Under the pieces are notes generated by a model. That model ran no database searches and was not told where the DNA came from. It worked only from the letters and a program-made list of their open reading frames with translations. Positions 3,565 through 3,957 of a stretch of 4,938 nt of DNA are shown in pieces; positions within the stretch are counted from its first letter, which is position 1, and each line of letters starts with the position of its first letter. The stretch is from the IMG/VR virus record IMGVR_UViG_2648501498_000015. One strand, given 5' to 3'. The stretch is from a virus. Its lineage: Duplodnaviria > Heunggongvirae > Uroviricota > Caudoviricetes. The position numbers and the translations under genes were made by a program.

Positions 3565-3957
3565 CCGGAAAAAGGAAAGTTTGAGAAACGCGATCTGGCA
3601 CAGGCGGTTATTAATGCTGCCTACCTGGTGGCCTGTGCAGATGGTGAATGTGAGGCTTCCTAGAAAGCGAAGATCGAACAGGTACTGCGTAATCAGCCTG
3701 CGCTGTCCGCGTTTACGTCAGAAATTAATGCGATTAGCGCAACCATTATCGGTCAGCTGGATACGAACTTTAAAATTGGTCGTCGTGCGGCGTTACGTGA
3801 GATCGAGGATGTGAAACACGATACGCGTGAAGCGGAAGATGTGCTGGATGTGGCGGTGGCCATTGCGGAGGCAGACGGCGAAATTGAGCCGGAAGAGCGC
3901 AAGGTGCTGGAAGAGATTGCCGGTGTTCTGGGTCTTCGTCTGGAGAATCACCTGTGA
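3565..3957 (+). pseudogene. TerB-like (tellurite-resistance TerB / DjlA N-terminal-like) ORF remnant: no start codon, in-frame amber at 3661-3663
   Basis: The frame translates to PEKGKFEKRDLAQAVINAAYLVACADGECEAS*KAKIEQVLRNQPALSAFTSEINAISATIIGQLDTNFKIGRRAALREIEDVKHDTREAEDVLDVAVAIAEADGEIEPEERKVLEEIAGVLGLRLENHL*. It contains two copies of the hydrophobic-A-x-A-D-G-E...acidic motif typical of TerB domains. It is bounded upstream by TAA 3562-3564 with no ATG/GTG/TTG before the TAG, and no start codon after it until GTG 3811. Confidence 0.4.

Follow-up and report, generated by a model that had tools for sequence, protein, structure and literature searches.

The 4,938-nt stretch of DNA analysed here (the window; IMG/VR record IMGVR_UViG_2648501498_000015) is the late-regulatory part of an Escherichia coli lambdoid prophage, and all of its listed genes lie on the plus strand. 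E. coli strain 90-3040 (L001) matches the 781 nt around the gene remnant considered below at 99.9% identity, and its RefSeq gene names are those that we assigned in the window. The other loci used for comparison are referred to by strain or number: O157:H7 F7386 (L003), SCU-204 (L004), uk_P46212 (L005), ESBL 15, MB06102 and O157:H7 PV15-279 (L006-L008), two prophages of O157:H7 Z563 (L009 and L010) and the Stx2a phage Stx2_EH1910 (L013). The features of the window are as follows.

1-288, plus strand: hok/sok module (Rfam sok match of 73 bits and an open reading frame)
1103-2152, plus strand: DUF968 gene
2165-2539, plus strand: rusA
2536-3357, plus strand: gene for late antiterminator Q, quuQ type, 273 aa (open reading frame; annotation of 90-3040 and Stx2_EH1910)
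3358-3576, plus strand: Q-downstream leader, with terminator-like hairpins at 3391-3407 and 3438-3455, each followed by a T-run (terminator scan)
3562-3564, plus strand: TAA closing the terB frame, part of the leader and not of terB
3566-3580, plus strand: deletion junction CGGAAAAAGGAAAGT (three-way alignment of L013 and L005, the window, and L007 and L003)
3577-3957, plus strand: terB/tciA-type remnant, codons 18-143 of a 143-aa protein plus TGA
3631-3660, plus strand: first acidic motif, ACADGECEAS (ACADGE at 3631-3648), directly 5' of the amber codon and aligned with structure 2jxu
3661-3663, plus strand: amber TAG in place of GAG (Glu46, the conserved Glu after the first ADGE motif; alignments and 31-mer counts)
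3811-3957, plus strand: longest canonical open reading frame left in the terB frame, 48 aa, the C-terminal third, beginning with GTG, the first canonical start after the TAG
3865-3897, plus strand: second acidic motif, AEADGEIEPEE (AEADGE at 3865-3882; translation and PF05099 match)
3954-4085, plus strand: intact DUF3927 (tciB-like) gene for a 43-aa membrane peptide (PF13064, 44 bits; 'DUF3927 family protein' in 90-3040)
4490, plus strand: start of a SASA-family (nanS-p-like) esterase gene

In the late operon, the remnant follows the gene for the Q antiterminator and precedes the esterase and lysis genes. The leader in front of it (3360-3578) is 99.5% identical to positions 3501-3719 of Stx2_EH1910, and 95% identical to strain uk_P46212. 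At the left end of the window, a hok-type toxin reading frame occupies 76-288 (its 51-aa core starts MKQQKAMLIALIVICLTVIV), and the sok antitoxin RNA match extends over 1-138, where it is cut by the window start; a weak isrK-like match at 297-378 scores 26.5 bits, under its gathering score. A 105-aa open reading frame in the +1 frame (3497-3814, plus strand) overlaps both the leader and the terB remnant, and its TGA (3812-3814) overlaps the GTG at 3811; lacking a convincing ribosome-binding site, it is probably open by chance within what used to be coding sequence.

Between 3565 and 3957 the terB frame reads PEKGKFEKRDLAQAVINAAYLVACADGECEAS*KAKIEQ...AEADGEIEPEERKVLEEIAGVLGLRLENHL, being closed upstream by the TAA, interrupted by the TAG and then open to TGA 3955-3957. 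With the TAG read as Glu, the translation matches the Pfam TerB profile (PF05099) over positions 2-109 of 118 with a score of 55.3 bits (E = 9.7e-15; gathering score 24.4 bits), so the frame is not a chance open reading frame. The initial annotation, made from the sequence alone, had called it TerB-like, had proposed this profile search and had named the lack of a TerB match as evidence against itself; the match is significant. Its other observations are borne out as well: the A-x-A-D-G-E motif is duplicated, both copies being kept with one in each half of the domain, and the in-frame amber codon directly after the first ADGECEAS block is seen in both sequence and translation, with the Glu that follows the first motif turned into a stop. 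The claim that the frame lacks an initiator needs one correction: there is no in-frame ATG, GTG or TTG from the TAA to 3627, but a GTG is found at 3628-3630. This is the Val codon of YLVAC, only 11 codons ahead of the TAG, and is useless as a start. An uninterrupted reading frame of about 143 aa with a start codon is thus absent from a locus that belongs to the family by sequence, which makes it a pseudogene of the TerB/TciA family.

The intact version of this gene in E. coli prophages encodes 143 aa, beginning MFGIFKKKTRRAATEIKKFEKRDL..., starts with an ATG 17 codons further upstream and carries GAG for Glu46. Examples are WP_001302123.1 in O157:H7 F7386 and WP_001304604.1 in SCU-204, both annotated as 'tellurite resistance TerB family protein'. 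These lambdoid copies from enterohaemorrhagic E. coli (EHEC) represent the same gene, with 94-97% DNA identity over 3577-3957, the same slot upstream of DUF3927 and a SASA-family esterase gene, and the same two ADGE motifs; they differ from the window copy in having tRNA genes on their 5' side, which are deleted in the window, in retaining codons 1-17 with the ATG, and in having GAG where the window has TAG at codon 46. Measured against the uninterrupted or full-length copies L003, L007 and L009, the remnant is 97.4-98.2% identical in DNA without gaps. A tblastn search of phage genomes returned 131 records with this protein, each at 80% query coverage or more; among the matches listed, identity was 97% in phage Evi, 65-75% in Erwinia and Salmonella jumbo phages and about 40% in the P1-like 'TciA', and most of the listed alignments span residue 1 to about 143. 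The initial annotation had allowed that the conserved unit might really start downstream of the TAG, for example at GTG 3811. Homologues, distant phage ones among them, align over residues 1-143, from the very first residue, and therefore the conserved unit is not confined to the 3' side of the TAG.

The first lesion is a single G-to-T transversion that turned GAG into TAG, and of the acidic residue or Gln guessed earlier for this site the acidic one proved right, with Glu46 encoded by GAG in intact homologues. In our alignments, TAG is present in nine sampled relatives and GAG in L003, L004 and L009. Among 5,426 complete E. coli genomes, 576 contain the exact TAG 31-mer, centred on the T, at a total of 961 places, compared with 164 and 763 places for two GAG forms of the same 31-mer (927 together). 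The amber codon also occurs in copies that retain the full-length 5' end, those of ESBL 15, MB06102 and O157:H7 PV15-279, in two upstream contexts. All nine fetched TAG copies and the window share a linked GCT at 3655-3657, and only two of 381 nucleotides distinguish L007, a TAG copy of full length, from L009, a GAG copy. Shared linkage and near-identity are both consistent with a single origin, and judging from these sequences the amber allele probably arose once.

The second lesion removed the ATG and the first 17 codons, and was caused by a deletion rather than by point mutation. The initial annotation had suggested aligning intact homologues to locate the N-terminal damage; this was done and placed the beginning of homology to intact terB at about 3577, which is codon 18 (K-F-E-K-R...). 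At the breakpoint, the left parental sequence is CGGAAAAGGGAAAAAG followed by ACATG (in a longer stretch, ...CCGGAAAAGGGAAAAAG followed by ACATG), where a 65-aa reading frame has its ribosome-binding site and ATG, and the right parental sequence is CGGAAATTAAAAAG followed by TTTGA (...ACGGAAATTAAAAAG followed by TTTGA), corresponding to terB codons 14-20. Across the same point the window reads ...CCGGAAAAAGGAAAG followed by TTTGA. The upstream TAA is inherited from the left side, since TTAACCGG is also found 5' of the 65-aa reading frame in L005 and L013. In the undeleted Stx2_EH1910 and uk_P46212, the leader is followed by the 65-aa reading frame, a DNA methylase gene and tRNA-Ile/Arg genes, after which come stx2AB in Stx2_EH1910 and the DUF3927 gene in uk_P46212; in F7386 and SCU-204 the tRNAs stand directly upstream of terB. 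More generally, Stx2a phages keep the arrangement from leader through tRNAs to slot with stx2AB in the slot, and their non-Stx relatives have the terB/DUF3927 pair after the tRNAs. Because the leader of the window is collinear with these undeleted relatives right up to the junction, one deletion appears to have taken the 65-aa reading frame, the cargo gene, the tRNAs and the 5' end of terB. Its size would be about 1.9 kb from the composite coordinates of L013 and L006 and about 1.5 kb with other cargo, giving a likely range of about 1.5-2 kb.

The junction was found in 478-484 of the 5,426 complete genomes, where the search matched about 6,700 terB-like places. We sampled six deletion-type copies that represent all three identity classes observed among the carriers (the window, non-O157 strain 90-3040, O157:H7-labelled 7409, Z563, 493/89 and ECP17-46), and all six have an identical junction together with TAG; none of these six, out of about 480 genomes with the junction, combines the deletion with GAG. 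Since TAG exists without the deletion and no sampled deletion exists without TAG, the amber mutation most likely preceded the deletion, although it is possible that TAG moved between copies by recombination.

The pseudogene status of this locus is already known: hundreds of public genomes carry such a flag, and the identical 90-3040 locus is so annotated in RefSeq, under the PGAP label 'TerB family protein', pseudo, 'internal stop'. The RefSeq pseudogenes C6W76_RS12100 (90-3040) and E3151_RS16540 (O157:H7 7409) have gene bodies that are 100% and 98.2% identical to that of the window and share its junction and its TAG, and the 90-3040 sequence itself is no different; their labels give only the internal stop and leave the truncation by the 5' deletion unmentioned. 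Our analysis adds to this annotation the 5' end removed by deletion, including the tRNA genes, and the wide distribution of the amber allele.

Among more distant systems, the P1-like TciA has the same TerB-domain family and size and aligns over residues 1-143 at about 40% identity, but it belongs to a three-gene operon in a phage-plasmid, whereas the window holds a dead copy of a two-gene unit in a lambdoid late operon. The lambdoid pair has been named tciA/tciB in phage JLK-2012. P1 TciA is a dispensable accessory gene product whose function is inferred from its name alone, and to our knowledge no role in tellurite or colicin resistance or in cell division has been established for lambdoid or P1 tciA, even for the intact genes. 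The literature on tciA offers only the P1-derived name, its non-essentiality and its frequent loss: the P1 gene was non-essential in a genome-wide CRISPRi screen (PMC10695390), and tciABC has been lost in nearly half of one subgroup of P1-like phage-plasmids (PMC9603915). The TerB of Klebsiella pneumoniae (structure 2jxu) shares the domain over residues 15-137 (E = 2.9e-7), including the Glu that the amber codon replaces in the window; it is part of the terZABCDE operon, while no ter operon is present here, the prophage having a stand-alone gene paired with that for a small membrane peptide.

The downstream DUF3927 gene begins with a GTG that shares bases with the terB stop (GTGA), and a GGAG of its own lies 8 nt upstream, at 3942-3945, so the gene need not be affected by the terB lesions. 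Its product is 43 aa long in the window, 90-3040 and uk_P46212, 55 aa (a 168-nt CDS) in the O157:H7 copies and ESBL 15, and 54 aa in SCU-204, a polymorphism of the 3' end. Further downstream, full-length matches to two RNA families overlap each other: AgvB, an anti-GcvB small RNA, at 4282-4343 on the minus strand (92.8 bits, gathering score 56), after which follows a terminator-like hairpin at 4307-4288, and STnc100 at 4129-4318 on the plus strand (119 bits, gathering score 47). AgvB is a prophage small RNA that aids EHEC growth in bovine rectal mucus (PMC4104026). In relatives, the minus strand of the gap between DUF3927 and the esterase gene carries a pseudogene called by PGAP, a partial 'hypothetical protein', roughly at the position of these matches.

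A separate observation concerns the 5' end of terB in relatives that have kept it. In L006-L009 this end (ATGTTTGGTATTTTTGGTAAAAAAAGCCCGC, at 2380-2410 of those loci) contains a run of seven A residues that puts the ATG out of frame, and the frame opened by the ATG ends after 16 codons. The PGAP CDS begins 4 nt downstream, at a TTG, which is how L009 comes to be called intact (WP_001303509.1). A word-based count covering the six-A form, in which the ATG is in frame, found it in at least 118 genomes. By its sequence, the seven-A form looks like a homopolymer frameshift, which would be a third kind of lesion in the terB family, and some copies annotated as intact may also be impaired by it.

A reading that had been offered as an alternative to a pseudogene is that a full TerB-like protein is made through suppression or read-through of the amber codon at 3661, combined with a non-canonical start near 3565-3600. 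The frame is otherwise clean with both acidic motifs intact, the former ribosome-binding stretch of the deleted 65-aa reading frame (GGAAAAAGGAAAG, 3567-3579) now heads it, and the private variation of amber copies leans towards synonymous change. What this would require is nonetheless hard to find. No ATG, GTG or TTG stands in frame between TAA 3562 and 3627, and the two inefficiencies, of start and of stop, are independent and multiply. Our searches found no tRNA gene in the window and no tRNA with a CUA anticodon in L003-L005, where the phage tRNAs have CAU, UCG and UCU anticodons only. The supE allele (glnV CUA) was detected in 157 of the 5,426 genomes, and the 40 of these 157 that we sampled are all of 4.5-4.94 Mb and mostly named laboratory K-12 strains (C600, DH1, XL1-Blue, JM109, J53) or transconjugants, compared with 5.2-5.7 Mb STEC for the sampled genomes with deletion and amber codon. 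These searches, of the window and three related loci for tRNAs and of the 5,426 genomes for supE, gave nothing in favour of suppression in natural carriers. Nor does the TAG behave as a conserved recoding site, because diverged homologues carry GAG and the TAG is found only in near-identical, GCT-linked alleles. The suggestion of suppression with an unusual start thus found no support, and we rejected recoding here as extremely unlikely. Errors of sequencing or assembly in a single record are a general possibility for any apparent lesion, but they are refuted here by counts, the TAG 31-mer being present in 576 independent complete genomes and the junction in about 480, from many laboratories; the chance that they account for the lesions is negligible. 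We also rejected an RNA element or an internal promoter as an explanation of the region: scanned against Rfam at E <= 1, the window as a whole gave no match within 3470-4128 and nothing nearby but suhB/mmgR at 3385-3470, which is at chance level (20.5 bits; gathering score 41), and a consensus promoter scan gave one weak minus-strand site in the gene, no more than in shuffled sequences.

A shorter product could be imagined instead, with the 48-aa C-terminal reading frame translated from GTG 3811, perhaps by coupling to the +1-frame ORF, and providing residual activity or a flow of ribosomes to DUF3927/tciB. This segment holds the second ADGE motif and matches PF05099 positions 70-109 at 32 bits, and the GTGA overlap that coupling would use is there in the sequence. 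The GAGGA at 3805-3809 is, however, just 1 nt from the GTG, too close for a normal ribosome-binding site, and the +1-frame ORF has no convincing site of its own. Moreover, these 48 aa are a third of what is one helical domain, uninterrupted copies have this internal GTG too, so that it is not specific to the amber allele, and DUF3927, with its GGAG at 8 nt spacing, does not need coupling. We consider such a product very unlikely. A less remote idea, although still an unlikely one, is that inactivation was selected, in which case TerB/TciA would carry a cost or be counter-selected in the lysogen. Of about 1,890 exact copies of the three tested 31-mers, 961 have TAG, the commonest single allele there, and TAG occurs in at least three upstream or prophage contexts; relatives carry a further apparent lesion in the seven-A run with its ATG out of frame, and tciABC is often lost in P1-like elements (PMC9603915). 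Against this, O157:H7 and other STEC, which are clonal and have been sequenced in great number, inflate the counts, uninterrupted copies are still present alongside in these genomes, and a neutral allele can spread by recombination between co-resident lambdoid prophages. A related proposal, in which selection keeps the amber allele itself, either because knocking out TciA helps the lysogen or because a split or read-through product survives, seems to us distinctly improbable. In the 381-nt body, none of 10 amber copies shows a stop or frameshift beyond the two lesions, and these copies diverge by 0-2.4%. Changes private to the amber lineages comprise about 4 synonymous and 2 non-synonymous events, a small number that recombination confounds, and four clustered changes at 3609-3621 resemble a conversion tract. 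The clean body, at this low divergence a test of little power, is what a young or recombining pseudogene would show, and together with the commonness of the amber allele it can be explained by low divergence, by recombination among co-resident prophages and by heavy clonal sampling of STEC.

We therefore regard the region, with a probability of about 93%, as an ordinary non-functional terB/tciA remnant in a lambdoid late operon, killed by two independent lesions, a nonsense codon and a 5' truncation that are both evident against intact close homologues. The initial annotation had spoken of a recent pseudogene with at least two lesions. The pseudogene holds, with its amber codon and 5' deletion, but 'recent' stands only with a qualification: uninterrupted copies differ from the gene body by only 2-3%, but the two lesions have already reached hundreds of genomes of several serotypes. 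In the history that we propose, the G-to-T transversion at the conserved Glu46 (GAG to TAG) would have come first. Illegitimate recombination at an imperfect purine-rich microhomology (CGGAAA...AAAAAG) would then have cost about 1.5-2 kb, removing the 65-aa reading frame with its ATG, a cargo gene (a DNA methylase or HTH gene in relatives), the tRNA-Ile/Arg genes, and the ATG and first 17 codons of terB. Transcription of the remnant probably continues within the Q-dependent late transcript. No TerB protein should result, because the domain has no in-frame start on its 5' side and is cut off by a stop after its first metal-binding motif. The loss of terB is likely to be tolerated, since the gene is dispensable and redundant; O157:H7 Z563, for example, has an uninterrupted copy (L009) in a different prophage from the pseudogene (L010), and genomes with the GCA-GAG form of the 31-mer typically have three such places each.

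For the family, this removes one candidate for stop-codon recoding, the open reading frame being a decayed accessory gene, and reveals one nonsense allele that has spread through many STEC prophages. For lambdoid prophages, it offers an example of the occupation and erosion of the slot that has the tRNAs on one side and the esterase gene on the other; in Stx2a phages this slot holds stx2AB.
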